This document shows positions 1-11,970 of a DNA stretch of 12,083 bases, one piece after another. How positions within the stretch are numbered: the stretch's first letter is position 1; every line of letters starts with the position of its first letter. Location: positions 1-12,083 of the forward strand of contig CAZPLO010000033.1 of NCBI GenBank assembly GCA_964587725.1. Reading direction: 5' to 3'. The translations under genes and the position numbers were made by a program. The notes beneath the pieces were generated by a model, which ran no database searches, was not told the origin of the DNA, and was given only the letters and a program-made list of their open reading frames with translations. Source of the DNA: an uncultured archaeon (GTDB lineage: Archaea; Altiarchaeota; Altiarchaeia; IMC4; SCGC-AAA252-I15).

Positions 1-1071
1 CTGGTTAAACTGGCCAAAGCGTTGGTCGAAGAAGGATACGATGTCAACTACGTGTCATTCTACAGGACATCCCAGTTCAGAATCCCCGAAGAGGACATGA
101 GACTGTTCAAGAACTCGTTCACCCTCGCAGGGTCAAGGGGCTCTAATCTGAAGGACACGCTCATGTGCATCCTGAAGACCCCGCTGTTCCTGCTGTGGGC
201 CGCCCGCAGAAGGGGGGCGGTCATTGGAGTAAGCGAACCCAACTGGTTCGTAGCGCTCGTGTTCCTGGCGTTCAAGCCGTTCGCCTCTGCGCTCATATAC
301 TCCCCCTACGACATCACCTACCTCCGGTTCAAAGACTACCTGAGGAATCCGTTGAGGGAGCGCATTGCAGAAAGATTCAACTTCAGACTATGCGACGGCA
401 TAATGCACAAGGGTCCGGAAGACGAGCTGAAACTCCTCCCTGGTTGGGCGGACGGCAAACCAAGCCTCCAGTTCCTGCCGTATGCGAGGGACGACTTTAT
501 CGTCGAACCAGCTTCGAAGGGCGGCACAGAACTCGCGTACGTCGGCGGCGTACCGTTAACCAACCCGGAACTCAACGTCCTCGAAGTGTTCACGTCGCTC
601 GCGGACCAGGGGTTCACCATACACGTGTACGCGCTCACTCACCCGGAGCTGAAAGACGAGGAGAGCATTAAGTCGCTGGTAGACTCCGGCTCCCTGGTAC
701 TACACGAACCACTTTTCGGGAAGGCACTGGCGGAGGAGATAAGCAGGTTCGACTGGGGTCTGCTGCTGTTCTTCCACAGTTTCAAGGACATGAGGAGGGA
801 GTGGGTCGACACAGCATACAGCAACAAAATAGCCACATACCTGGAGGCCGGGCTACCAATAATAGTGAACTCGGAACTCGCGTTCCAGGCGCAGGTGATA
901 CGTGAGAACCGCCTGGGGTTGGTGGTTGACGGAGTGGAGGAAGTGGGGGATAAGGTTAGAAAAGCCGATTACGGGAAGATGCTGGAGGAACTGGCCGCAG
1001 GCAGACATAAATTAATGCTGTCCCATAATATAGACAGGTTGATGGACTTCATGGAGGGACTGTGCGGATGA
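1..1071 (+). CDS. Glycosyltransferase, GT-B fold (GT4-like), 5'-truncated by the window edge
   Basis: Frame 1 is open from base 1 (LVKLAKALVEEGYDV, resembling the 'LAKAL..GHEV' N-terminal GT4 segment), so the TTG at 22 is probably not the true start. The C-terminal half has 'LAYVGG' and 'SNKIATYLEAGLPIIV', matching the GT4-like donor-binding 'PNKxxEYxAxGLPVI' region. Confidence 0.75.
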   Translation: MVKLAKALVEEGYDVNYVSFYRTSQFRIPEEDMRLFKNSFTLAGSRGSNLKDTLMCILKTPLFLLWAARRRGAVIGVSEPNWFVALVFLAFKPFASALIYSPYDITYLRFKDYLRNPLRERIAERFNFRLCDGIMHKGPEDELKLLPGWADGKPSLQFLPYARDDFIVEPASKGGTELAYVGGVPLTNPELNVLEVFTSLADQGFTIHVYALTHPELKDEESIKSLVDSGSLVLHEPLFGKALAEEISRFDWGLLLFFHSFKDMRREWVDTAYSNKIATYLEAGLPIIVNSELAFQAQVIRENRLGLVVDGVEEVGDKVRKADYGKMLEELAAGRHKLMLSHNIDRLMDFMEGLCG

Positions 1072-2162
1072 ACCGGCTGAGCTTCGACAAAATATTCCAC
1101 CACCACGAGCACTTGAACCGGGTATTGAGCGAAGGCGACGCATACCCGCTGCACCTGGAGCTGGGGCTGAACAACTTCTGCAACCACGACTGCGAATTCT
1201 GCGCAGCCGCCCAGTCCAAGTTCGAGGTCGGCGGCGACCGCGTTGAAATCGACAAAAACCGGTTCCTCGAAATAGTTGGGGAGATGCAGTCCCTCGGCCT
1301 CAAATCCACAAACATAGTCGGCTCCGGTGAGCCGACCCTCCACCGACACTTTCCCGAGATAGTGTCGGGCATAAAAGAGAGGGGGGTTGAAATAGGTTTG
1401 TTCACCAACGGCAGCAACGCCCGCGGCCGCGTCGCCCAGGCCATAATAGACAACCTCACCTTCGTACGTTTCAGCGTCACCGGCGCATCCAACCGCGTTC
1501 ACGAAATGGCCCACGGAACCCGCGACTTCTACCGCATAATAGACAACCTCAGCAGCCTGGTGTCCATGCGAGGCGACAGCGTCTTCCCCACCATCGGCCT
1601 ACAGTTCATACTCATACACTACTCCGCCCCCGACCTCCCCAGGATAGTGGACATCGCCAGGGACGTGGGCGTAGACTACCTGGCGATAAAGCCGGTGATA
1701 GGTGTGGAAGGCACCCGCTCCAGCAAAAGCGAACTAACAATAGACGAGACGTTGAAGCTGCTGAAGGAGGTTAAGAGGATGGAGGGCGACGGCCTTGAAA
1801 TACATGTGAAGCCGGAGCAGACAAAAATCGTTTACGAAAACGACCCCGGCGACCGCGGCTACAGCCGCTGCCTAGGATGCCTCACCACCACCACATTAGA
1901 GGCTAACTTTAACCTGTACATATGCGACAACCGCAAGAAAGACCAGTTCCTCCTCGGAAACCTAAGGGACAAAGGTTTCCGGGAGGTGTGGGACAGCGAC
2001 CGCCGGAAAAAGGTTATGGCGGACGTGGACGTCGGCACATGCCCTGTGGCCTGCAGGATGGACCCCCTCAACCGCCTCTACCAGAAGATACTGGACGGGG
2101 AGGTGGAGATACCCTATAGCCTGCCGGACCCCCGTCCGGAAGACCACATAAACTTCCTATGA
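1068..2162 (+). CDS. Radical SAM protein with C-terminal SPASM/twitch-like auxiliary Fe-S domain
   Basis: CxxxCxxC motif CNHDCEFC (1179-1202), 'GSGEPTLH' (GGEP variant) and 'FTNG'. The C-terminal pattern is 'RCLGC...LYICD...LGNL...FREVW...CPVAC'. ATG at 1068 overlaps the upstream stop (ATGA) and is preferred over GTG at 1062. Confidence 0.9.
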   Translation: MNRLSFDKIFHHHEHLNRVLSEGDAYPLHLELGLNNFCNHDCEFCAAAQSKFEVGGDRVEIDKNRFLEIVGEMQSLGLKSTNIVGSGEPTLHRHFPEIVSGIKERGVEIGLFTNGSNARGRVAQAIIDNLTFVRFSVTGASNRVHEMAHGTRDFYRIIDNLSSLVSMRGDSVFPTIGLQFILIHYSAPDLPRIVDIARDVGVDYLAIKPVIGVEGTRSSKSELTIDETLKLLKEVKRMEGDGLEIHVKPEQTKIVYENDPGDRGYSRCLGCLTTTTLEANFNLYICDNRKKDQFLLGNLRDKGFREVWDSDRRKKVMADVDVGTCPVACRMDPLNRLYQKILDGEVEIPYSLPDPRPEDHINFL

Positions 2163-2178: not shown

Positions 2179-3129
2179 ATGGCAGGGAAAAAGATAAACG
2201 TGTTAGTGGGTAGCATAGGCTCTACCGGTTCCATAAACATAGTTAAGACGCTGAAGAGCCAGAGGAAATACAGGGTGCGGGTGTACGGAATCGACTGTAT
2301 GGACAACGTGGCGGGCAAATATCTCTGCGACGGATTTCAGGAGGTGCCTCGGGGAGACCACCCCGACTACATATCAGCCGTCCTGGAATTGTGCGAAAAC
2401 AGGGGGATAGACATATTCATACCCATCTTCATGGAGGAACTCCTCTCCGTCTCAGATAACAGAAAGTTATTCGCCGGCAAAGGAATCATGGTTCCCATGT
2501 CTGAAAGGCGAGTGATAGATGTATGCAGGGATAAGTCAAAAACCAACGATTTTTTCAGAAAGCACGAAATACCCCACATACCATTCATAACAGCCGAAGA
2601 AGCAGCAGAAAGGTTTCCCGTGTTTGTTAAGCCGAGGACTGGAAGGGGTACTACAGACTGCTTCAAAGCCGAAAACGAGAAGGAACTCAAGTTCTACTTG
2701 GACAAGCTCAAGGACCCTGTGATACAGGAATACGTTTCCGGGGATGAATACAGCATAGACGCATTTAACGACTTGGAAGGTAGATTCATAGGGGCGGTTC
2801 CCAGGGAGAGACAAGAGATGAAGGGGGGCATAGCCGTTAAAACCCAGACCGTATACGATAAGGAATTAATAGAATACACGGAGAAGATAACCACTTCATT
2901 GGGTCTGGTAGGTGCCTCAAACATACAGTGCTTCAGGACGCCGGAGAAGGTGCTCTTCTTCGAGGTAAATCCCCGTTTTGGGGGTTCATACATACTGAGT
3001 ATCAAAGCGGGGTTAAACGCTCCACTCTTCCTCCTCGACATGTTCAAGGGGAATACTCCAGACTATGAAGGATTCCAGGACTCCCTCTACATGGTCCGGT
3101 ATTGGACAGAGGAATACGTTAAACTATGA
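2179..3129 (+). CDS. ATP-grasp domain protein (CarB-like/PylC-like stand-alone ligase family)
   Basis: 'CRDKSKT', 'FPVFVKPRTGRGT', 'IQEYVSGDEYSID', 'NIQCF' and 'FFEVNPRFGG' are ATP-grasp motifs. Preceded by AAAGGTG. Confidence 0.88.
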   Translation: MAGKKINVLVGSIGSTGSINIVKTLKSQRKYRVRVYGIDCMDNVAGKYLCDGFQEVPRGDHPDYISAVLELCENRGIDIFIPIFMEELLSVSDNRKLFAGKGIMVPMSERRVIDVCRDKSKTNDFFRKHEIPHIPFITAEEAAERFPVFVKPRTGRGTTDCFKAENEKELKFYLDKLKDPVIQEYVSGDEYSIDAFNDLEGRFIGAVPRERQEMKGGIAVKTQTVYDKELIEYTEKITTSLGLVGASNIQCFRTPEKVLFFEVNPRFGGSYILSIKAGLNAPLFLLDMFKGNTPDYEGFQDSLYMVRYWTEEYVKL

Positions 3130-3773
3130 CGAACATGTACATCGACTTGGACGGCACCTTGATTGATGTGCGAAAAAGATTTTATGAAACCTACAGTTGC
3201 ATCATGAGGGTGGAAAACCAGGAAACCCTGGGTTACACAGACTACCTTACTCTTAGACTGAATCATGTTCCTCTCAAGGAGATTCTGGAAAAAACCAGAA
3301 GCCAGGGAATCTATGGGGAGTTCATACGACAGAGAAACCAGTTATTCGAATCTATGGAAATGCTCGACTACGATAAGCTGATTCCAGGGGTCAAGGACAC
3401 CTTGGGGGAGCTCCGGAAGAAACACGTCCTCACTATGGTGACCAACAGAGACAAACAGGAAAACCTGTTTAAACAGCTGGAATGGTTCGGATTGAGGACA
3501 TACTTCGTTGAAATAATGGTGGGAAGCCAGTTCGGGGGGTGGGAGGCAAAGCAGAAACTAATATCGAGCAGTGGAGAACCCCCCATTTATTCCATGATTG
3601 TTGGAGATACTGAAGCTGACATAAAAGCGGGTAAAAACCTTGGAATCAAAACATGCGGGGTGCTGACGGGCATGCGGGCCAGGAAACTCTTAGTGGAGGA
3701 GGAACCCGACTACCTCATTAAGGACTTTAACAAAATATTTGATGTGCTTGAAACAGAAGACGGTGTTGGGTGA
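3126..3773 (+). CDS. HAD-superfamily hydrolase (phosphoglycolate-phosphatase-like, C1 cap)
   Basis: Motif I 'IDLDGTL', motif II 'MVTN', motif IV 'VGDTEADIKAG', C-terminal 'PDYLI'. ATGA overlap with the ATP-grasp gene. Confidence 0.9.
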   Translation: MTNMYIDLDGTLIDVRKRFYETYSCIMRVENQETLGYTDYLTLRLNHVPLKEILEKTRSQGIYGEFIRQRNQLFESMEMLDYDKLIPGVKDTLGELRKKHVLTMVTNRDKQENLFKQLEWFGLRTYFVEIMVGSQFGGWEAKQKLISSSGEPPIYSMIVGDTEADIKAGKNLGIKTCGVLTGMRARKLLVEEEPDYLIKDFNKIFDVLETEDGVG

Positions 3774-3813
3774 CCCGCTGTAAGTGTTTAAAGTAAATAA
3801 TTTAAGTGATACC
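3774..3813 (+). promoter_or_regulatory. Possible internal archaeal-type promoter (TATA-like TTTAAA at 3787-3792) upstream of the aminotransferase
   Basis: Largest internal intergenic gap (40 bp), AT-rich, with TTTAAA ending about 21 bp before the ATG at 3814 and GTGAT just before the start. No transcript data. Confidence 0.35.
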
Positions 3814-4908
3814 ATGGATGTGTCGTTCGTGAACTTGAAGGAGCAGCAGAAGAACATCAAGCAGGAGTTGTTGGATGCGGTCGCAGACGTACTGGATGAA
3901 TCATACTTCATCCTCGGCGAGGACGTGAAGGAATTCGAGAAACGGTTCGCCGGCTACTGCGGCACCGAATACGCGGTGGGCGTGAACTCCGGCACAGACG
4001 CCCTGACCCTGTCGCTGAAGGCCCTCGGAGTCGGTCCAGGGGATGAAGTTATCACAGTTTCCAACTCCTTCCTCGCCACGGCATCGTGCATCGCTGCTGT
4101 CGGAGCGAAGCCCGTGTTCGTAGACGTGCTGGAGGACATGAACATGAACCCCGAGTTGATAGGGGATGCGGTGACAGGCAATACGAAGGCGATAATACCA
4201 GTGCACCTCACCGGCAGGCCGGCGCGGATGGACGCCATAAAAGACGCTGCGGAAGACCATGGACTGTTCATCGTCGAGGACGCGGCGCAGGCGGTAGGCG
4301 CCGAATATAAGGGTGAAAGGGTGGGTTCGTTCGGAGTAGGATGCTTCAGCCTGCACCCCCTGAAGAATCTTAACGCGTGCGGCGACGCCGGCATCATAAC
4401 GACAGACGACGAGGAAATCTTCGCCAAACTCACGCAGCTCCGCAACATAGGGTTGAAGGACCGTAACCATGCGGACGTGTGGGGGTACAACAGCAGACTA
4501 GACACAGTCCAGGCGGCGATACTGAACGTTAAATTCAAATACCTAGACAAATGGACTGAAAAGAGACGGGAGAACGCAAGGTACTACTGCCAGCAGCTGG
4601 AGGATGTGGTAGACTACGTCCCCGCCGAAAAAGACGGGGAGAAATGCGTTTACCACACCTACGTCATCCAAACCGACAGAAGGGATGAGCTGCAGAAGCG
4701 CCTGGGCGAAAAAGGAATAGGCTCCAAGATACACTATCCCATACCAATTCACCTGCAGAAGGCAGCCGAATACCTGGGCTACGGGAAAGGCAGCCTGCCG
4801 GTGACCGAAGAACAATATAAGAAGATTCTGTCGCTGCCCATATACCCTGAGCTGACAGGCGAGCAGCTGGAGTACGTGGCAGCCGAAATAAAGACTTTTA
4901 TGACCTAA
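3814..4908 (+). CDS. DegT/DnrJ/EryC1/StrS family PLP-dependent sugar aminotransferase
   Basis: 'VNSGTDAL', 'GPGDEVIT', 'IIPVHLTG', 'IVEDAAQA', 'FSLHPLKNL' (catalytic Lys retained), 'GYNSRLD' and 'LSLPIYP'. ATG at 3814 (MDVSFVNL) fits the family N-terminus better than GTG at 3784. Confidence 0.95.
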   Translation: MDVSFVNLKEQQKNIKQELLDAVADVLDESYFILGEDVKEFEKRFAGYCGTEYAVGVNSGTDALTLSLKALGVGPGDEVITVSNSFLATASCIAAVGAKPVFVDVLEDMNMNPELIGDAVTGNTKAIIPVHLTGRPARMDAIKDAAEDHGLFIVEDAAQAVGAEYKGERVGSFGVGCFSLHPLKNLNACGDAGIITTDDEEIFAKLTQLRNIGLKDRNHADVWGYNSRLDTVQAAILNVKFKYLDKWTEKRRENARYYCQQLEDVVDYVPAEKDGEKCVYHTYVIQTDRRDELQKRLGEKGIGSKIHYPIPIHLQKAAEYLGYGKGSLPVTEEQYKKILSLPIYPELTGEQLEYVAAEIKTFMT

Positions 4909-4924
4909 CTCCATGTGAATTACT

Positions 4925-5914
4925 ATGAATGTCGCCGTCACAGGGGGTGCAGGGTTCATCGGCAGCCACATGGTCGACCGCTGCCTCGCGGAAGGCCACA
5001 ACGTCACCGTGGTAGACAACTACAGCACCGGCAGGCCGCAGAACCTCAGCCACCACGAAGGCAACGAAAACCTCACCCTCGCGGAGTCGGACATCAACGA
5101 CACCGATAAACTCACCGAAGCATTCGAGGGCGTGGACTGGATATTCCACTACGCCGCCTTAGGCGATATTGTGCCGTCGATTCAGAAGCCACGTGAATAC
5201 TTCCGCTCCAACGTAGACGGCACATTCAGCGTGCTGGAGGCGGCGCGGAAAAACAACACCCAAAAACTTGTGTATGCGGCGAGCAGCTCCTGCTACGGCA
5301 TACCCGACCAATACCCTACGAGAGAAGACGCTGAAATCCGCACAGAGTACCCTTATGCTCTAACAAAGTATCTGGCGGAGCAGATGATACTCCACTGGGG
5401 GAAAGTATACGGGCTGCCGGTGAACTCGCTGAGGATATTCAACGCCTACGGCCCCCGCAGCAGAACATCAGGCACATACGGTGCAGTGTTCGGGGTGTTC
5501 CTCGCGCAGAAGCTGGCGGGCAAACCCTTCACGGTCGTCGGAGACGGAAAACAGACCCGCGACTTCGTGTATGTGACGGATGTTGTCGACGCCTTCTATA
5601 AGGCGGCTGAAACGGACGTTTCAGGGGAGGTGATGAATGTGGGCGCAGGAAACCCGCAGAGCGTCAACCGCCTCGTCGAACTGCTGGAGGCGCCGGACGT
5701 AATACACATTCCGAAGAGGCCGGGTGAGCCGGACTGCACCCACGCGGACATAACCCGGATAAGGAAGCTGCTTGGTTGGAAGCCGAAGGTCGGCTTCGAA
5801 GACGGGGTGAAAGAAATGCTCGACAACATAGACTACTGGCGGAACGCCCCCGTATGGGACCCGGAGAAAATACGGGATGCCACGAAGGACTGGTTCAAAT
5901 ACCTTGGAAAATGA
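4925..5914 (+). CDS. NAD-dependent nucleotide-sugar epimerase/dehydratase (extended SDR)
   Basis: 'TGGAGFIGSH', 'AASSSCYG', YxxxK 'YALTK', 'RIFNAYGPR' and 'GDGKQTRDFVYV'. Confidence 0.93.
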   Translation: MNVAVTGGAGFIGSHMVDRCLAEGHNVTVVDNYSTGRPQNLSHHEGNENLTLAESDINDTDKLTEAFEGVDWIFHYAALGDIVPSIQKPREYFRSNVDGTFSVLEAARKNNTQKLVYAASSSCYGIPDQYPTREDAEIRTEYPYALTKYLAEQMILHWGKVYGLPVNSLRIFNAYGPRSRTSGTYGAVFGVFLAQKLAGKPFTVVGDGKQTRDFVYVTDVVDAFYKAAETDVSGEVMNVGAGNPQSVNRLVELLEAPDVIHIPKRPGEPDCTHADITRIRKLLGWKPKVGFEDGVKEMLDNIDYWRNAPVWDPEKIRDATKDWFKYLGK

Positions 5915-7443
5915 AAAACAATTATCTGTCGAAGATTAAGTCGAGGGAGGAGCTGAAGAAGATAATCGGGAGCCCGCCGCGGAAGAAGACCGTGGTAATG
6001 TGCCACGGCACATTCGACATCGTCCACCCAGGGCACCTACGCCACCTCATGTACGCGAGGGAGAAAGGCGACGTACTGATTGCCACCCTCACAGCCGACA
6101 GATTCATAGACAAGGGCATGGGCCGGCCGTTCGTGCCGGAGGATTTGCGCGCCAAAAACCTCGCAGCCATAGAGTTCATAGACTACGTCGTCATAGACTA
6201 CGAGAAGAAACCCCTCAAAAACATCAAGTACCTGAAGCCCGACATATTTTTGAAGGGGTTCGAGTACACGAAAGACGGGCTCCACCCCAACACCCAGGAG
6301 GAGGTGAAGGCCGTGTCATCTTACGGGGGGAAGGTTATGTTCAGCCCCGGCGACATCGTGTACTCGTCAACCCACCTCCTGTCCGTCCACAAGCCCAGGA
6401 TTTCCATAGACAAGCTGGTTGCTGTGATGGAGGCGGAGGGCGTCACCTTCGAGGACGTGCTCGAATACCTGCAGGGCCTGGACAAGCTGAAGGTCCACGT
6501 CATCGGAGACACCATAGTCGACAAGTACTCGTACTGCAGCGTCCTGGGGCCGTCCACGAAGACGCCCACGTTCTCGGTGAAATTGAACGAGTCTAAATCG
6601 TTCGTCGGTGGGGCAGGTGTCGTAGCCAAGCACCTGAAGAGCCTCGGCGCGGACGTAACATTCACCACCGTGTTGGGAGACGACGACATGGGAGCGTACG
6701 TCCAAGAAGACCTGAAGAAGTGGGGCATCAAAACCCATGCGATAGTCGACGACACCCGACCCACAACCGTTAAGGAACGATTCTGGGCGGACGGCTACAA
6801 GCTCCTGCAGGTCGATGTCGTAGACAACCGCATAGTGTCGGACGACGTCCTCAAGAAAATAGGGCAGTCGATTAAAAAACACAAGGCCGACATCGTGGTG
6901 TACAGCGACTTCCGCCACGGCATCTTCCAGGAGGAGACCATCAAATACCTGGACGGCAGGGTTCCCAAAAAGACGGTGAGGGTGGCTGACAGCCAGGTCA
7001 GCAACCGGTGGGGCAACATACTCGAGTTCAAGGGCGCGGACATCATATTCCCCAACGAAAAGGAGGCGCGGTTCGCGTTGGGCGATCAGGACACCGCCAT
7101 ACGCCCGCTGGCGGAGAAACTCTACAGGAAATCCAAGGCCAAGTACCTGGTACTGAAGCTGGGTGAAGCTGGGCTGATACTCTACCGTGAGCGGGGCTCC
7201 GACCCGCGGAACTTCATCGCATTGGAGAGCTTCGTCGAGGAACTGGTGGACGGCATAGGGGCCGGCGATGCGCTGCTGGCGGCGGCGACGCTTGTCTACC
7301 GGAAGACGGGGGACATCTTCACCGCCGCGTTGGCGGGGAACCTGGCCGCCGCAATAGCGTGTGAGACGGAAGGGAACGTCCCCGTCAGCGTGGACAAGAT
7401 ACGGGAGAAAATCGAAGCAATAAGGCGCAGGGAACTCTTATGA
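5911..7443 (+). CDS. Bifunctional nucleotidyltransferase (RfaE domain II/cytidylyltransferase-like) + PfkB sugar kinase (RfaE domain I-like); HldE-like with reversed domain order
   Basis: N-terminal 'HGTFDIVHPGH' (HxGH at 6025-6036) and 'KPDIFLKG'. C-terminal 'VIGDTIVDKY', 'GGAGVVA', 'RPTTVKERF', 'PNEKEA' and 'DGIGAGDA' (PfkB signature at about 7249-7272). ATG at 5911 overlaps the upstream TGA. Confidence 0.9.
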   Translation: MKNNYLSKIKSREELKKIIGSPPRKKTVVMCHGTFDIVHPGHLRHLMYAREKGDVLIATLTADRFIDKGMGRPFVPEDLRAKNLAAIEFIDYVVIDYEKKPLKNIKYLKPDIFLKGFEYTKDGLHPNTQEEVKAVSSYGGKVMFSPGDIVYSSTHLLSVHKPRISIDKLVAVMEAEGVTFEDVLEYLQGLDKLKVHVIGDTIVDKYSYCSVLGPSTKTPTFSVKLNESKSFVGGAGVVAKHLKSLGADVTFTTVLGDDDMGAYVQEDLKKWGIKTHAIVDDTRPTTVKERFWADGYKLLQVDVVDNRIVSDDVLKKIGQSIKKHKADIVVYSDFRHGIFQEETIKYLDGRVPKKTVRVADSQVSNRWGNILEFKGADIIFPNEKEARFALGDQDTAIRPLAEKLYRKSKAKYLVLKLGEAGLILYRERGSDPRNFIALESFVEELVDGIGAGDALLAAATLVYRKTGDIFTAALAGNLAAAIACETEGNVPVSVDKIREKIEAIRRRELL

Positions 7444-8330
7444 AATACGTCATCGTCGGGTTGGGCAACATCGGCAGAAAAAGAAAAGAGGTGCTGGGAA
7501 GCCGGTGCGTCGCAACAGCCGACCCCAACGCCGACGCAGACTACGGAGACTACCGTGAAATCTCCCTCGAAGAATTCGACGCCTCCATATTAGCTGTCCC
7601 CAACGATTTGAAGGCGGAGATGGCCGAATACTTCATGGCATCGGGGAAACACGTGCTGTGCGAGAAGCCCCTGATGATTGATGAAGACACGATGAAGAAG
7701 CTCTCCCGGCTCGCCAAAGAAAACCGCGTATCATGTTACACGTCATACAACCACCGGTTCGAACCTAATATGGTGGAGTTGAAGAAGCTCCTGGACGGGA
7801 TAGGGGAAATATACTTCGCAGACCTCACCTACGGCAACGGCACCGTTCGGAACCTCGCCGGCAGCTGGCGTGACGACGGCGCCGGAGTCGTGGAAGACCT
7901 GGGATGCCACCTCCTGGACCTCGCGGAATACCTGTTCGACAGAAGTGACGGCTACAGGATAACCGGACTGGGCAGCAGGGAGGCGAACGCGTACGACTGG
8001 TGCCGTTTCACAACCGAAGACGGCATGATAAATTTCCAGTGCTCGTTCCTGATGTGGAAGAACACGTTCACGGTGAACGTATATGGGGGCGAAGGCTCCC
8101 TCCACATTGACGGCCTAGACAAATGGGGCGGCTCCCGCCTCACACGCAGGAAACGGGTGTACCCCAGCGGCGTGCCAGAAGAGAAGATAACCGAAACCAT
8201 GGGGCCGGACAAGACGTGGGCCGCGGACATCCAATACTTCGAACAACTTGCGGTGGATGGAATGAATACGCTGGAGAAGGATTATAGAATCGCGTCAGCA
8301 ATCAACGGCATGTTGGGGTGTGTGGAATGA
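7440..8330 (+). CDS. Gfo/Idh/MocA family NAD(P)-dependent oxidoreductase
   Basis: 'IVGLGNIG', 'GKHVLCEKP', 'YNHRFEP' and 'GAGVVEDLGCHLLD'. ATGA overlap. Confidence 0.92.
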   Translation: MKYVIVGLGNIGRKRKEVLGSRCVATADPNADADYGDYREISLEEFDASILAVPNDLKAEMAEYFMASGKHVLCEKPLMIDEDTMKKLSRLAKENRVSCYTSYNHRFEPNMVELKKLLDGIGEIYFADLTYGNGTVRNLAGSWRDDGAGVVEDLGCHLLDLAEYLFDRSDGYRITGLGSREANAYDWCRFTTEDGMINFQCSFLMWKNTFTVNVYGGEGSLHIDGLDKWGGSRLTRRKRVYPSGVPEEKITETMGPDKTWAADIQYFEQLAVDGMNTLEKDYRIASAINGMLGCVE

Positions 8331-9172
8331 ACGTCGTTGTCACAGGCGGCGGAAGCGGCATAGGCGCGGCGGTGGCTGAAAACCTCGCAGCAGACGGCCA
8401 CCGAATACTGGTATGCGGCCGGACCGAAGGGAAACTCCGTGAAGTCGCCTCCAAGGGTATGTTGTGGTGTGTCTGCGACGTCGCCGACGAAAAACAGGTG
8501 AAGGGGTTCGCAGAATACGCTGGGAAAGAACTGGGTCACGTGGACGTGCTCATAAACGCTGCCGGGGTTCAAGGCGAAATAGGGCGCTTCGACGAAACAG
8601 ACTCCGAAAAATGGTTGAACACCTTCAAGACCAACATGTTCGGCGTCTACCTGATGGCGAAGCACATGCTGCCGCTGATACTGAAGTCCGAAACCAGGAG
8701 GATAATCAATTTCTCCGGCGGCGGCGCATTCAATGCGTTCCCAAACTACAGCGCCTACGCGGTGTCTAAGGCCGGCGTCATCCGCTTCACCGAAAACATC
8801 GCCGAAGAACTTCGGGAACTGGGTGTCGCCGTCAACTGCGTGGCTCCGGGGTTCGTCGCCACCGGCATACACGGTGAAACCCTGGAGGCGGGGGAGCGCG
8901 CGGGCAGAGACTACCTCGAATTCACGAAACAGAAGCTCAAGGAAGGGTCGGTGCCGATGAAGGTCCCGGTCGCATGCGTCCGGTTCCTCATACACGACTC
9001 CGGCGGCCTCACCGGCAAGACGCTGAGCGCCGGCTTCGACCCCTGGGACAAAAAAGAGTTCAAGGACTTCATAGATGGGTTGAACGAATCGGACCTTTAT
9101 ACGATGAGGCGCATAAACTTAGTCAACCTCGATTTGAGGGACAGGCTGAGGAAACTGGGTGAACTGAAGTGA
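8327..9172 (+). CDS. Classical short-chain dehydrogenase/reductase
   Basis: 'VTGGGSGIG', 'CDVAD', 'LINAAG', YxxxK 'YAVSK' and 'VNCVAPG'. ATG at 8327 forms an ATGA overlap and is preferred over 8318. Confidence 0.92.
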   Translation: MNVVVTGGGSGIGAAVAENLAADGHRILVCGRTEGKLREVASKGMLWCVCDVADEKQVKGFAEYAGKELGHVDVLINAAGVQGEIGRFDETDSEKWLNTFKTNMFGVYLMAKHMLPLILKSETRRIINFSGGGAFNAFPNYSAYAVSKAGVIRFTENIAEELRELGVAVNCVAPGFVATGIHGETLEAGERAGRDYLEFTKQKLKEGSVPMKVPVACVRFLIHDSGGLTGKTLSAGFDPWDKKEFKDFIDGLNESDLYTMRRINLVNLDLRDRLRKLGELK

Positions 9173-10149
9173 ACGTTTTGATAATAGGCGGGACGGGATA
9201 CGTTGGCTCGAAGCTCGCGCCGAAGCTGCTGGAAGACGGATACGACGTAACAGTAGCTGACTGGATGATGTACGGCAACCACCTCCCGTTCGACAGAAAC
9301 CTGAGGTGCGTGAAAACAGACATACGCGACAGAGAGGGGGTGGAAGGGCTCTTTGAAACAGGCTACGACGCGGTGGTGATGCTCGCTTCGATATCCAACG
9401 ACCCCATGGGCGACCTGAACCCAAAGCTCACGGAATCCATCAACGTCGACGCAACAGAAAACATAATCGATTTGTGCGTGGGCAAAGGCGTGCCACGCTT
9501 CATATTCGCGTCCAGCTCCAGCGTATACGGGGTCAACGACCAAGAGAACATTACAGAGGATGTTCCCACAGCCCCGATTTCACTGTACAGCAGAACCAAG
9601 GAGTGGGTGGAAGACTACCTGCGTGAGAAATCGTCCGACTCCTTCCAGCCCACCATCGTACGGCCCGCTACGGTATGCGGATACAGCCCCCGCCAGCGCC
9701 TCGACCTGATAGTGAACCTCCTCGCCTACAAAGCATACTTCGACGGAGGAATAACCATCGAAGGCGGGGAACGCATACGGCCTCACATACACGTGGACGA
9801 CATGGTCTGCGTATACCAGAGCCTCCTTGAAGCTCCTGAGGAGAAGGTCGCTGGGATGACGTTCAACTGCGGCGCAGAAATCATGAGTCTGCTGGAACTG
9901 GGGGAGAAGGTTCAGAAACACACGGGCTGCAAGTTAGGCGAAGCGGAGGGCCCTGACAAGAGAAGCCACCGTCTGAACTCCGACCTCATCAAAGAAACCC
10001 TGGACATAAAGTTCACGAAAACCGTCGACGACGCAATTTCAGACCTCATATGGGCGTTCGAAAACCATCTGGCAGACCCGTCGGACGGCCGCTTATTTAA
10101 TCTGAAGTGGTATAACTACCTACTCGACAAAGGCTCCATAAGCCTCTGA
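9169..10149 (+). CDS. NAD-dependent nucleotide-sugar epimerase/dehydratase/reductase (extended SDR), second copy
   Basis: 'GGTGYVGS', 'LASISNDP', 'FASSSSVYG', 'YSRTK', 'RPATVCGYSPRQRLDL' and 'RPHIHVDD'. GTGA overlap start. Confidence 0.9.
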   Translation: MNVLIIGGTGYVGSKLAPKLLEDGYDVTVADWMMYGNHLPFDRNLRCVKTDIRDREGVEGLFETGYDAVVMLASISNDPMGDLNPKLTESINVDATENIIDLCVGKGVPRFIFASSSSVYGVNDQENITEDVPTAPISLYSRTKEWVEDYLREKSSDSFQPTIVRPATVCGYSPRQRLDLIVNLLAYKAYFDGGITIEGGERIRPHIHVDDMVCVYQSLLEAPEEKVAGMTFNCGAEIMSLLELGEKVQKHTGCKLGEAEGPDKRSHRLNSDLIKETLDIKFTKTVDDAISDLIWAFENHLADPSDGRLFNLKWYNYLLDKGSISL

Positions 10150-10151
10150 AA

Positions 10152-10757
10152 ATGCAGTACGTTGAACATTACCTTGAAGGCGCCAAGAAGATACTGGATG
10201 AGGTGAGCAGGGAGGACATCGAAGCCGTCGTCAAAGAGGTGGCGGCGGTCAGGGACCGCGGCGGCAGAGTATTCTTCATAGGCGTCGGCGGCGGAGCCGC
10301 GAACGCCTCCCACGCAGTCAACGACTACCGCAAGATATGCGGCATAGAGGCTTACACGCCAACAGACAACGTCGCCGAACTGTCTGCCAGGGCCAACGAC
10401 GAAGGCTGGGAGACCGTTTTCCGGGAGTGGCTGCGGCAGAGCCGCCTTAACGAAAAAGACATGGTGTTCGTGTTCTCCGTCGGCGGAGGCAACGTGGAGA
10501 AGAACGTGAGCGTCAACATCGTGAACGCGCTGTCGTATGCGAAGGAGGTCGGAGCCTCCATATGCGGTGTCGTAGGCCGCGACGGCGGATACACCCGGAA
10601 GGTGGCGACCGCATCCGTTTTAATACCGACGGTCGACTCGGGTTCTGTGACGCCGCACACGGAGTCGTTTCAGATGCTAGTATCCCATTTGATAGTGTCG
10701 CATCCGGAGTTGTGCGCGCACGGGATGAAGTGGGAGTCGATTGATGAGGTGAAGTGA
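10152..10757 (+). CDS. SIS-domain sugar-phosphate isomerase, GmhA (phosphoheptose isomerase)-like but divergent
   Basis: 'GGRVFFIGVGGGAANASHAVND', 'LSARANDEGWETVF' (cf. GmhA 'xAxxNDxGYxxVF'), 'NIVNAL', 'GRDGG' and 'HTESFQMLVSH'. Confidence 0.85.
   Translation: MQYVEHYLEGAKKILDEVSREDIEAVVKEVAAVRDRGGRVFFIGVGGGAANASHAVNDYRKICGIEAYTPTDNVAELSARANDEGWETVFREWLRQSRLNEKDMVFVFSVGGGNVEKNVSVNIVNALSYAKEVGASICGVVGRDGGYTRKVATASVLIPTVDSGSVTPHTESFQMLVSHLIVSHPELCAHGMKWESIDEVK
10746..10752 (+). promoter_or_regulatory. Shine-Dalgarno-like GAGGTGA for the transaldolase gene
   Basis: GAGGTGA lies 7 nt upstream of ATG 10760 and is complementary to the 16S rRNA 3' end. This form is common in archaea. Confidence 0.6.
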
Positions 10758-10759
10758 AT

Positions 10760-11449
10760 ATGGCGATTTTTCTGGATTCAAGCAAGGTGGAGGAGATACG
10801 GAAATACCATGAGATGGGAGTAATCAGGGGCGTGACAACCAACCCCACCATCATGTTCAAGGACGGCGTCAAAGGCTGGTTGAAGGGCATAGAGAAACGG
10901 AGCAAGGAGATTGCGGCCCTCGTCAACCCCTACCCGGTGTCCGTTGAAGTGCTTACAAACGAACCGGAGAAGATGCTGGAGCAGGCGATAGAGTTCTCCA
11001 AGTGGGCCGGCAACATAAACGTGAAGATAACCATACACGGCCCCAACGGGGAGCTGGACAACCTGAAGGTCGTGCATGAACTCGAAACCGAGCACGATGT
11101 CCGCGTCAACGTCACGGCAATGATGAGCGCCCAACAATGCTATCTCGCCGCGGAAGCCGGCGCAACCTTTGTTTCATTGTTCGGCGGCCGCGTCAACAAC
11201 ATGGGCTACAACTGCTGCGAGGAGATAATGAAGACCCGTGAGTTATTGGACGACTTCGGCTTGGACGCCAGAATCATTATCGGCTCCACCCGGGAGATAC
11301 TCAACATCGTCGAATGGCTGAACGCCGGTGCACACATCGTAACTGTGGTGCCGAAGTTCATAGAGGGCATGATAGTCCACCCCTACTCTAAGGAGACGGT
11401 GCAGATGTTTTTGGGCGACGCCGAGAACCTGCAGGCGAAGCTCAAGTAA
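10760..11449 (+). CDS. Transaldolase, small TalC/FSA (MipB) subfamily
   Basis: 'IFLDS', 'GVTTNPT', 'VSVEV', Schiff-base Lys in 'NINVKIT', 'NVTA', 'GATFVSLFGGR', 'GSTR' and 'HPYS'. Glu in VSVEV plus Phe in SLFGGR is the transaldolase-type rather than FSA-type (Gln/Tyr) pairing. An alternative GTG start exists at 10754. Confidence 0.9.
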   Translation: MAIFLDSSKVEEIRKYHEMGVIRGVTTNPTIMFKDGVKGWLKGIEKRSKEIAALVNPYPVSVEVLTNEPEKMLEQAIEFSKWAGNINVKITIHGPNGELDNLKVVHELETEHDVRVNVTAMMSAQQCYLAAEAGATFVSLFGGRVNNMGYNCCEEIMKTRELLDDFGLDARIIIGSTREILNIVEWLNAGAHIVTVVPKFIEGMIVHPYSKETVQMFLGDAENLQAKLK

Positions 11450-11451
11450 GT

Positions 11452-11970
11452 ATGGACGCAGTCTTCCTGGACCGCGACGGTGTGTTGAACGAGCCGGTGT
11501 TCCGTGGTTCAGGGAAGCCCATCGCCCCCTGGACCCTGGACGAATTTCATATACTCGACGTCGGCGAACCGTTGAACCGGCTGAAGGACATGGGTTACCT
11601 GCTGTTCATCGTCACCAACCAGCCTGACATAGCCAAGGGGATTGTTGATGCGGAGGTCGTGGACGAGATGAACGCCATGCTCTTGGAACGATATCCTATT
11701 TCTGAGGCCGCCGTCTGTCCGCATGCCGACGAAGACGGCTGCAGCTGCAGGAAGCCGAAGCCGGGCATGATACTGTCGCTCGCCGAAAAATGGAATGTTG
11801 ACCTGGGCAAATCCTATCTGATAGGCGATAACTGGAAGGACATCGAAGCAGGGAGGAACGCGGGCGCCACCTCCATACTGCTGGGCAGAGAATACAACAA
11901 AGGGGTTGAAGCAGACCACCGCGCCGAAGACCTGCGGGAGGCGGTGGACCTGATGCGCCTCCTCCAATAG
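11452..11970 (+). CDS. gmhB: D,D-heptose 1,7-bisphosphate phosphatase-like HAD-IIIA enzyme
   Basis: 'AVFLDRDGVLN', 'VTNQP', Zn site 'CPH....CSCRKPKPGM' and 'IGDNWKDIEAG'. Confidence 0.88.
   Translation: MDAVFLDRDGVLNEPVFRGSGKPIAPWTLDEFHILDVGEPLNRLKDMGYLLFIVTNQPDIAKGIVDAEVVDEMNAMLLERYPISEAAVCPHADEDGCSCRKPKPGMILSLAEKWNVDLGKSYLIGDNWKDIEAGRNAGATSILLGREYNKGVEADHRAEDLREAVDLMRLLQ

Follow-up and report, generated by a model that had tools for sequence, protein, structure and literature searches.

A widespread, uncharacterised gene cassette that probably makes a nucleotide-activated higher-carbon sugar

What sugar would be made by a locus in which a dedicated transaldolase sits beside relatives of the heptose-activating enzymes and a series of sugar-tailoring enzymes? 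The locus lies on a contig (C33) of an uncultured archaeon, the whole of which, 12,083 bases, was analysed and is called the window here; the host genome (G000) is 1.56 Mb and 92% complete. The tetranucleotide make-up of the contig is inside the host range, and 33% of 108 12-kb host chunks deviate more from the genome mean. Nine genes are contiguous on the plus strand (3784/3814-11970; ORF map and Pfam), separated by spacers of at most 16 bases or overlapping. Pfam confirms the inventory of families proposed in the sequence-only reading. That reading started the DegT gene at 3814, where there is an in-frame ATG, but the open reading frame begins at 3784. The genes are, in order:

3784..4908, plus strand: DegT/DnrJ/EryC1-family PLP aminotransferase (Pfam PF01041, E 1e-115; alternative ATG at 3814)
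4925..5914, plus strand: extended short-chain dehydrogenase/reductase (SDR) 1, a GalE-like epimerase/oxidoreductase (Pfam Epimerase/GDP_Man_Dehyd; Epimerase E 6e-62)
5911..7443, plus strand: fusion of an N-terminal nucleotidyltransferase with a C-terminal PfkB sugar kinase (Pfam PF01467, PF00294)
7440..8330, plus strand: Gfo/Idh/MocA NAD(P) oxidoreductase (GFO), a putative sugar-ring dehydrogenase (Pfam PF01408/PF22725/PF02894)
8318..9172, plus strand: classical SDR, a putative ketoreductase (Pfam adh_short, E 1.3e-47)
9169..10149, plus strand: extended SDR 2 (Pfam Epimerase, E 1.7e-39)
10152..10757, plus strand: SIS-domain ketose/aldose phosphate isomerase (Pfam SIS_2, E 1e-9)
10760..11449, plus strand: small transaldolase, 229 aa (Pfam TAL_FSA, E 4e-34; upstream GTG at 10754)
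11452..11970, plus strand: GmhB-like HAD-IIIA sugar bisphosphate phosphatase (Pfam HAD-IIIA, NCBIfam)

The isomerase, kinase/nucleotidyltransferase and phosphatase families are shared with the ADP-L-glycero-beta-D-manno-heptose pathway (GmhA, HldE, GmhB and HldD), from which the cassette differs in its reversed fusion order, in an altered SIS signature and loop, and in the addition of a dedicated transaldolase, GFO, extra SDRs and DegT. In the fusion protein, CTP_transf_like (PF01467) spans residues 31-140 and PfkB (PF00294) residues 194-489; by BLASTP, residues 9-143 align with residues 322-454 of E. coli HldE (36%) and residues 187-493 with residues 5-304 (23%). Judged by these alignments it is an HldE-like protein with the domain order reversed, and this order is identical across its best 120 database homologues (54-100% identity). 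The kinase and nucleotidyltransferase that had been proposed are thus both represented by their domains, but in a single fused protein. The phosphatase shares 34% identity with E. coli GmhB, has the DxDG and CPH...CxCRKP motifs, and scores 116 bits against TIGR01656, over its cut-off, and 109 bits against NF006506 (cut-off 178). The NCBIfam heptose equivalogs are missed widely by the cassette proteins: 43 bits against 209 for gmhA (TIGR00441, with the SIS protein), 176 against 521 for HldE and 121 against 275 for HldD.

In general terms, the cassette very likely builds a ketose phosphate and makes a nucleotide-activated higher-carbon sugar. The transaldolase would move the C3 dihydroxyacetone unit of fructose-6-P (F6P) onto an aldose phosphate, most likely ribose-5-P, to give octulose-8-P. 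The cassette-specific SIS protein would convert this ketose phosphate to an aldose phosphate, the PfkB half of the fusion would phosphorylate C1, the GmhB-like phosphatase would take off the terminal phosphate, and the nucleotidyltransferase half would yield an NDP-sugar, which the two extended SDRs and GFO may then oxidise and epimerise on the ring. In the window copy, DegT would turn a keto group, probably at C3, into an amine, and the classical SDR would adjust another centre. The scheme first proposed, a ketose phosphate of the locus's own that is activated and then oxidised, epimerised and aminated, has a logic that fits all the family calls, although amination of the C6 type is less likely and DegT proves to be accessory. 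On metabolic context we tentatively favour an eight-carbon product over a seven-carbon one.

The seven-carbon alternative seems to us doubtful, yet it has the best claim among the competing explanations. Here the transaldolase boosts or secures sedoheptulose-7-P (from F6P and E4P), making a mobile cassette self-sufficient; the divergent SIS protein gives heptose-7-P, possibly the C2 epimer of the GmhA product; and the product is an NDP-amino-heptose. The kinase, phosphatase and nucleotidyltransferase all belong to heptose-type families by NCBIfam, which counts against C8, and best fit the HldE/GmhB models and E. coli HldE and GmhB. We know of no free octose from a surface glycan, and glycan clusters often bring their own precursor-supply genes. 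The top solved relative of extended SDR 2 is 6VO6 ("putative sugar-nucleotide epimerase/dehydratase", E 5e-34), which we take to be Cj1427, a GDP-heptose C4-dehydrogenase. Additionally, in a genome of the same genus (G001) an ordinary transaldolase gene immediately precedes a GmhA-type SIS_2 gene, with GmhB also alongside, so a transaldolase can accompany canonical heptose genes.

However, the host already encodes a canonical GmhA (TIGR00441, 209.8 bits with the cut-off at 209.45) adjoining a GmhB-like gene, a housekeeping transaldolase adjoining an Rpe-like gene, a transketolase and RpiA; therefore sedoheptulose-7-P and a normal isomerase are already on hand. The cassette transaldolase and SIS protein are also distinct lineages with changed active-site neighbourhoods. 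In a tree with six references only (four archaeal housekeeping transaldolases, E. coli FsaA and TalB), 47 of 47 cassette transaldolases form a single separate clade (SH-aLRT 99), which bears out the earlier claim of a dedicated transaldolase. The window enzyme keeps the catalytic Asp/Asn/Glu/Lys/Thr and the Ser-Phe-x-Gly-Arg motif, with Phe in place of Tyr, and there are clade-specific changes adjoining the catalytic residues; the clade could mirror shared descent with the cassette and not a new specificity. In the window SIS protein a loop is extended by six inserted residues, and the signature positions that read H/E/R/D/T/(D or P)/Q/H in canonical GmhA read H/D/-/D/V/P/E/H. An insertion of 6-9 residues, in the loop matching the STSG segment of GmhA, is common to all 39 SIS proteins of the cassette, as are four changed GmhA positions; both features are absent from three of three canonical GmhAs. 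By these sequence features the SIS protein is a cassette-specific subfamily, distantly related to GmhA.

Further evidence against the seven-carbon alternative comes from methanogens. One (G203, main contig 2.17 Mb) carries the same SIS-transaldolase pair, 58% and 67% identical; the cassette transaldolase is its sole TAL_FSA gene, and a profile search gave no Transketolase_N match. In another with the pair (G041), whose assembly may be incomplete, there is no Transketolase_N or Transket_pyr match, while RpiA and an archaeal type II DHQ synthase are encoded. Neither genome therefore has an evident E4P source. Both bear another type of cassette, with an HpcH aldolase and a CMP-transferase, and the argument carries to the NDP type only if the product of the shared pair is identical in the two types. 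Given the separate host pathway genes, the distinct transaldolase clade, the distinct SIS protein and the gene content of G203, the cassette is not a routine ADP-heptose synthesis locus, as the sequence-only reading had held.

Is the nine-gene grouping particular to this contig? Eighteen metagenome loci were counted in which a fusion homologue had at least 6 kb of upstream and at least 3 kb of downstream sequence. GFO is present in 18/18, extended SDR 2 in 17/18, extended SDR 1 and the transaldolase each in 15/18, SIS in 13/18 and GmhB in 12/18; DegT occurs in 6/18 and the classical SDR in 4/18. The grouping is not due to chance, since the same families recur around fusion homologues in other organisms, and the suspicion that similar cassettes exist elsewhere was correct. 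Both extended SDRs and GFO are core, while DegT and the classical SDR, first counted as pathway members and indeed present here, are accessory. By record names, cassette hosts include Methanoperedens, Deltaproteobacteria and Methylomirabilota, and transaldolase homologues of 70-79% identity are found in records from Methanoperedens, Marinimicrobia and Promethearchaeota. A point against the favoured scheme is that TPP/transketolase-like genes, and no transaldolase, accompany distantly related fusion homologues on plasmids of Azospirillum and Solidesulfovibrio.

Extended SDR 1 is encoded directly 5' of the fusion gene (48-65% identity across its loci); it scores 177 bits against NCBIfam GalE, under the cut-off, and its top PDB matches are 6DNT and GalE entries. 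GFO, directly 3' of the fusion gene, has weak matches to an archaeal UDP-GlcNAc 3-dehydrogenase (NCBIfam, E 1.9e-13) and to inositol dehydrogenases and WbpB (PDB; WbpB E 6.6e-7). The classical SDR (50-54% identity) comes after GFO in loci L021, L023 and L078. The closest solved relatives of DegT are 7B0D, QdtB (3FRK), 2OGA and WbpE (E 4e-71); QdtB and WbpE are presumably 3-aminotransferases, and DegT resembles sugar 3-aminotransferases in sequence.

Four further genes occupy the start of the window:

1-1071, plus strand: GT-B-like protein, 5' open (weak NCBIfam match and protein Atlas)
1062-2162, plus strand: radical SAM/SPASM protein (family assignment)
2179-3129, plus strand: ATP-grasp protein (family assignment)
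3126-3773, plus strand: HAD-IA protein (family assignment)

They overlap or closely abut the cassette in the same operon, but were near the fusion gene in 0/18 metagenome loci and are outside the conserved cassette. GC drops to 0.46-0.47 across about 2500-4000. The neighbouring glycosyltransferase of the earlier reading is a lead only: the 1-1071 protein has GT-B/GT4-like features in the protein Atlas (score 0.98), but a Pfam search gave no family, and its weak NCBIfam matches to PRK09814 sugar transferases (E 4e-10) are far under the cut-off. The cassette product would probably be handed to this protein for a surface glycan.

These genes matter to an improbable explanation in which two pathways are side by side: the transaldolase, SIS protein, fusion halves and phosphatase make an unmodified NDP-sugar, and a separate NDP-hexose is modified by DegT and the classical SDR, which would belong with the radical SAM, ATP-grasp and HAD genes of the upstream block. 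DegT might serve another sugar, as it and the classical SDR are accessory, it stands at the cassette edge in each of its six loci, here at the border with an upstream block of differing GC, and its solved relatives act on NDP-hexoses. On the other hand, DegT genes recur beside the cassette in independent loci, in varying positions and orientations, a 59%-identical homologue adjoins the fusion homologue of a family-mate genome (G014), and GFO and both extended SDRs are nearly invariant fusion partners.

The eight-carbon scheme has its closest parallel in lincosamide biosynthesis. There LmbP and LmbO are presumably separate proteins of other families, and amination is at C6, following 6,8-dehydration. 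The cassette has a single HldE-type fusion for kinase and nucleotidyltransferase, and its amination chemistry is probably different from that at C6 because DegT is nearest QdtB and WbpE. According to PMC4351081 and PMC12945683, the Streptomyces GDP-octose route proceeds through LmbR, LmbN, LmbP, LmbK and LmbO, then LmbM, LmbL, LmbZ/CcbZ and LmbS/CcbS; for lincomycin, the transaldolase LmbR, the C8 isomerase LmbN, the C8 phosphatase LmbK and the C8 guanylyltransferase LmbO are given there as confirmed and the kinase LmbP as predicted only (PMC4351081, Table 2). The order of activities is common to both systems as so described: transaldolase, isomerase, kinase, phosphatase, nucleotidyltransferase, epimerase, oxidoreductases and aminotransferase. 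Of the lincosamide-type families, Pfam finds transaldolase, SIS, HAD-IIIA, SDR, oxidoreductase and DegT-type proteins in the cassette. The parallel is functional only, an analogy of activities, and unlike lincosamide clusters the window is without antibiotic-assembly genes, the setting being a glycan locus. SDR-type tailoring of an NDP-higher sugar, through oxidation, epimerisation and reduction, is also seen in the Campylobacter jejuni capsule GDP-heptose enzymes (the C4-dehydrogenase Cj1427, epimerases and C4-reductases; PMC10680097). The characterised heptose routes considered, however, begin at sedoheptulose-7-P, as does this one, with GmhA, HddA, GmhB and HddC, and "transaldolase" occurs zero times in the main text of PMC10680097. 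The pairing of a Gfo/Idh/MocA dehydrogenase with DegT resembles WbpB/WbpE-type 3-oxidation and 3-transamination, although the GFO match is weak and the WbpB/WbpE substrate is UDP-GlcNAcA, against a putative C7 or C8 NDP-sugar here.

The second, uncharacterised cassette seen in the methanogens consists of SIS, transaldolase, an HpcH/HpaI aldolase, HAD, two SDRs and a CMP-transferase-type enzyme. Adjacent SIS (51-62% identity) and transaldolase (62-72%) lineages are common to both cassettes; downstream, one has the aldolase and a CTP_transf_3 enzyme and the other the HldE-like fusion and GmhB. Least probable of all is another chain length or role, with a hexose-6-P acceptor (C9), another aldose phosphate or a transaldolase run in the cleavage direction: the pair likewise supplies the second cassette, with its aldolase, HAD phosphatase and CMP-transferase-type enzyme, and sequence does not reveal acceptor range, but the downstream enzymes here are closest to heptose-type enzymes, and a C9 sugar phosphate made by a transaldolase is, to our knowledge, without precedent in glycan synthesis.

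The presence of the SIS-transaldolase pair in two cassette types implies that a shared intermediate feeds two very different uses. Literature searches found no description of the NDP-type cassette. It is widespread yet uncharacterised, and the window locus is one copy of this conserved cassette, spread by horizontal transfer.

The genome of the host, an uncultured Altiarchaeota archaeon (G000), is 1.56 Mb in size and 92% complete, and the window, 12,083 bases long, makes up its entire contig C33. The 13 genes are all on the + strand and either overlap or lie no more than 16 bases apart; the nine from the DegT aminotransferase onwards constitute the cassette proposed to produce an NDP-activated C7/C8 amino sugar.

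Genes of the window (coordinates, strand, product)
1-1071, +, GT-B-like protein, open at the 5' end
1062-2162, +, radical SAM/SPASM protein
2179-3129, +, ATP-grasp protein
3126-3773, +, HAD-IA protein
3784-4908, +, DegT aminotransferase
4925-5914, +, extended SDR 1 (extSDR1)
5911-7443, +, nucleotidyltransferase-PfkB kinase fusion
7440-8330, +, Gfo/Idh/MocA enzyme (GFO)
8318-9172, +, classical SDR
9169-10149, +, extended SDR 2 (extSDR2)
10152-10757, +, SIS protein
10760-11449, +, transaldolase (TAL)
11452-11970, +, GmhB-like phosphatase

Family searches agree with the enzyme inventory of the sequence-only reading except that the kinase and the nucleotidyltransferase are a single protein, in which the halves of HldE are reversed. 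PF01467 lies ahead of PF00294, the opposite of HldE, where the kinase is N-terminal and the adenylyltransferase C-terminal; residues 9-143 of the fusion align to residues 322-454 of E. coli HldE, and residues 187-493 to residues 5-304. The extSDR1, fusion and GFO genes follow one another in that order, with 4-base overlaps between them.

The synteny search that the same reading had proposed recovers a conserved cassette around fusion homologues in 18 metagenome loci, namely those, out of 80 with a fusion homologue in the metagenome scan, that extend at least 6 kb upstream and at least 3 kb downstream of the fusion. GFO accompanies the fusion in 18/18, extSDR2 in 17, TAL and extSDR1 in 15 each, SIS in 13, GmhB in 12, DegT in six and the classical SDR in four, and some misses may stem from the coverage filter (the TAL of L024, for example, is seen by tblastn and was not counted). 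On these frequencies the core therefore comprises seven genes, most commonly ordered SIS, GmhB, TAL, extSDR2, extSDR1, fusion, GFO, while DegT and the classical SDR, both present in the window, make up an accessory branch. The window fits this reversed-HldE cassette: its fusion has extSDR1 immediately upstream and GFO immediately downstream, and a TAL of the cassette clade, an insertion-bearing SIS and a GmhB-like phosphatase occupy 10152-11970. A literature search without most subscription journals or supplements found no description of such a cassette. The ATP-grasp, HAD-IA, radical SAM and GT-like genes occur in 0/18 of the related loci. Between positions 2500 and 4000, across the ATP-grasp and HAD-IA genes, GC content falls to 0.46-0.47, compared with 0.54-0.59 elsewhere in the window; this dip and the absence of the upstream genes from the 18 loci suggest that the operon is a mosaic.

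The earlier claim that this is not standard heptose synthesis is borne out: all NCBIfam heptose equivalogs are missed, the TAL and SIS belong to dedicated lineages, and G000 has separate canonical genes. The window SIS scores 43.4 bits against the gmhA model TIGR00441 (cut-off 209.45), the fusion 176.5 bits against the HldE model NF008454 (cut-off 521) and the GmhB-like phosphatase 109.4 bits against NF006506 (cut-off 178). The phosphatase does match the HAD-IIIA domain models, is 34% identical to E. coli GmhB, and has the catalytic and Cys/His motifs. On the HldD model TIGR02197, extSDR1 reaches 120.8 bits and extSDR2 57.5 bits, below the cut-off of 274.6, and GalE models score above the HldD model.

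The host serves as an internal control, since the genome that holds the cassette also has canonical GmhA and GmhB genes as well as a transketolase and a housekeeping TAL. The canonical GmhA, the other SIS_2 gene of G000, which scores 209.8 bits on TIGR00441 and is thus right at the cut-off, is encoded with a GmhB-like gene (NF006506, 174.5 bits) at C1:133726-134831 (locus L107:4727-5832). This pair adjoins a GT2-type transferase, with an archaeal GlmM nearby. The genome carries an archaeal-type GlmM (TIGR03990, 438 bits) and a type II DHQ synthase, the latter present, among the control genomes, only in archaea. The housekeeping TAL is next to an Rpe-like gene on contig C13, the transketolase is on C9, and RpiA is also present. 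With the fusion as query, no second PfkB-type heptose kinase was found in G000. Given the canonical GmhA, housekeeping TAL and transketolase, sedoheptulose-7-P and an ordinary isomerase are therefore already at hand. A role for the cassette in supplying sedoheptulose-7-P to an organism without a pentose phosphate pathway is rejected for G000, which has genes for TAL, transketolase and RpiA and an Rpe-like gene.

A tree of 53 transaldolases places all 47 TALs from cassettes in one clade (SH-aLRT 99), with the only six references (four archaeal housekeeping TALs, E. coli FsaA and TalB) outside it. The window TAL sits in a sub-clade that otherwise mostly accompanies a second, HpcH-type cassette; most fusion loci carry the other sub-clade, at 28-39% identity to the window TAL. 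Further sub-lineages of TAL and SIS occur in loci L021, L022, L025 and L026 and in L015, L016 and L043, and include a small TAL group, the third, at 35-39% identity. In alignments to B. subtilis Tal (3R8R), the T. maritima enzyme (1VPX) and E. coli FsaA, the cassette TALs keep the Schiff-base Lys and the catalytic Asp, Glu and Thr, and their S-x-F-x-G-R motif contains Phe, not Tyr; residues adjoining the catalytic ones show clade-specific changes. These residues presumably play the catalytic and discriminating roles that the transaldolase literature gives them. By the kept catalytic residues and the Phe, the cassette enzymes look like transaldolases proper rather than fructose-6-P aldolases.

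The SIS proteins are equally distinct. All 39 from cassettes, including that of the window, have an insertion of 6-9 residues (6 in the window SIS) in a loop aligning with the STSG segment of GmhA, and all 39 depart from E. coli GmhA at four positions: Asp replaces Glu at 65, Arg is lost at 69, Val replaces Thr at 120 and Glu replaces Gln at 172. Positions 61, 94 and 180 are kept. We take these positions to have functional roles in GmhA. The insertion and the position changes are found in 0/3 canonical GmhAs. In one SIS group the insertion has 9 residues (SVHGG...WSQN), and its members partner either TAL type. A transaldolase is present in the same locus for 33 of 38 SIS genes drawn from related loci.

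The SIS-TAL pair also heads the second cassette, in which SIS is 51-62% and TAL 62-72% identical to the window proteins. The gene order there is GFO, methyltransferase-like, SIS, TAL, HpcH/HpaI aldolase, HAD phosphatase, two SDRs, CTP_transf_3 cytidylyltransferase and 2-hydroxyacid dehydrogenase.

Loci of the second cassette type (coordinates, basis)
L013:7256-15377, Pfam scan
L116:4792-13028, tblastn and ORF sizes

Two methanogen genomes with this second cassette bear on the chain length of the sugar, and they are the only ones of 301 genomes in their class (that of G041) with a cassette TAL. In G203 (main contig 2.17 Mb) there is no Transketolase_N match and the cassette TAL is the only TAL_FSA gene; in G041, which may be incomplete, there is no Transketolase_N or Transket_pyr match, and RpiA and type II DHQ synthase are present. 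Another genome, G043, was dropped from this argument owing to a Transket_pyr match and a marginal Transketolase_N match. A genome lacking transketolase has ribose-5-P to draw on but no evident erythrose-4-P, and the TAL product in G203 and G041 is therefore more likely to be octulose-8-P, as for LmbR in lincomycin (PMC4351081). We place a C8 sugar for the cassette at close to an even chance, although the argument draws on two genomes only, both with the second cassette type rather than that of the window.

A C7 sugar is rather unlikely, but it would suit the heptose-type downstream enzymes of the cassette, and it has a parallel in the same-genus genome G001. There, in the stretch C11:64096-65886 (locus L113:4096-5886), a GmhA-type SIS_2 gene directly follows the only transaldolase (TIGR00875, 327 bits), and next come a GmhB gene scoring 179.6 bits on NF006506 and one that is LonB-like, in what looks like a TAL-heptose operon of ordinary enzymes, with the TAL directly beside GmhA-type and GmhB genes. 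Against seven carbons stand G203 and G041, which have the SIS-TAL pair but no transketolase match, so that a source of erythrose-4-P is not evident. Some other chain length or front-end role is improbable, and what chance is left falls to the nine genes not being one pathway. Returning to eight carbons, it may be, though we would wager somewhat against it, that SIS and TAL act together as a portable front end, making octose-8-P from fructose-6-P and ribose-5-P and feeding at least two activation routes, one to an NDP-octose (the window) and one via aldolase and CMP to a very long ulosonic acid.

The tailoring enzymes have relatives of several kinds. GFO shows weak likeness to archaeal UDP-GlcNAc 3-dehydrogenase and to WbpB, and the best solved relatives of DegT include QdtB and WbpE, which we take to be sugar 3-aminotransferases. 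From these relatives we infer that ring oxidation and amination would occur at C3, unlike in lincosamides, where amination is at C6. A functional link of DegT to the cassette is supported by the family-mate G014, in which the neighbour of the fusion homologue (31-33% identity) is a DegT with 59% identity to that of the window. The same homologue lies about 1.2 kb from the only Transketolase_N gene of that genome; the stretches concerned are L002 (G014:C82:1733-5236) and G014:C82:1308-2081. ExtSDR1 is GalE-like and matches no dehydratase equivalog. The best solved relative of extSDR2 is 6VO6, presumably the GDP-heptose C4-dehydrogenase Cj1427. PMC10680097 describes that function of Cj1427.

The cassette pathway would work like the Lmb octose route and the NDP-heptose routes but is a member of neither. 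The lincosamide route has a separate kinase (LmbP) and guanylyltransferase (LmbO), which belong to other families, whereas the window has one fused HldE-type protein. The window has members of the transaldolase and SIS families, each from a dedicated lineage, which may be counterparts of the pair that makes octose-8-P for lincosamides. Among the 13 window genes there are no antibiotic assembly genes (condensation, mycothiol/ergothioneine handling, resistance), going by the Lmb gene list of PMC4351081. Septacidin was rejected as a close model: PMC9978623 describes SepI as a FAD oxidase of the GMC family, and there the heptose is modified while nucleoside-bound.

Among the database matches listed, fusion homologues with the same domain order (54-67% identity) come from records labelled Methanoperedens, Deltaproteobacteria and Methylomirabilota, and TAL homologues (70-79% identity) from records labelled Methanoperedens, Marinimicrobia and Promethearchaeota. 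Because several contigs, matched by size, recur in both lists, the two genes appear to travel together. Of 40 host relatives searched with the fusion, only G014 has a full-length homologue (33% identity), and none was found in G001. In the order of G043, matches at E <= 1e-30 occur in 3/151 genomes, all of them kinase-only (28-34% identity). Rarity among host relatives, though the cassette is found in distant lineages, points to horizontal acquisition in G000; the composition of C33 is nonetheless normal for the genome, and gives no sign of mis-binning. The plasmid collection yields two distant fusion homologues only (29-33% identity), in the cultured bacteria Azospirillum oryzae (L114, NZ_CP054615.1) and Solidesulfovibrio carbinolicus (L115, NZ_CP026539.1). 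Their neighbours include SIS and radical SAM genes, SDR and DegT genes in L114, and TPP E1/transketolase-like genes in place of a transaldolase. Both strains might serve as starting points for experiments.

The window adds an archaeal copy of the cassette with an amino branch, and an argument from metabolic context, that of the SIS-TAL pair in methanogen genomes without a transketolase match. Should the product prove to carry an amino group on an NDP-octose, or on an unusual heptose, it would be a new class of monosaccharide in archaeal and bacterial surface glycans. Several large unnamed enzyme families would then gain a function: the HldE-like fusion of reversed order, the TAL clade of the cassettes and the SIS isomerase with the loop insertion. 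Sugars of eight carbons and longer have so far been known mainly from the antibiotic lincomycin. If SIS and TAL do make octose-8-P for both activation routes, C8 and longer sugars would be common building blocks in the surface glycans of uncultured archaea and bacteria.
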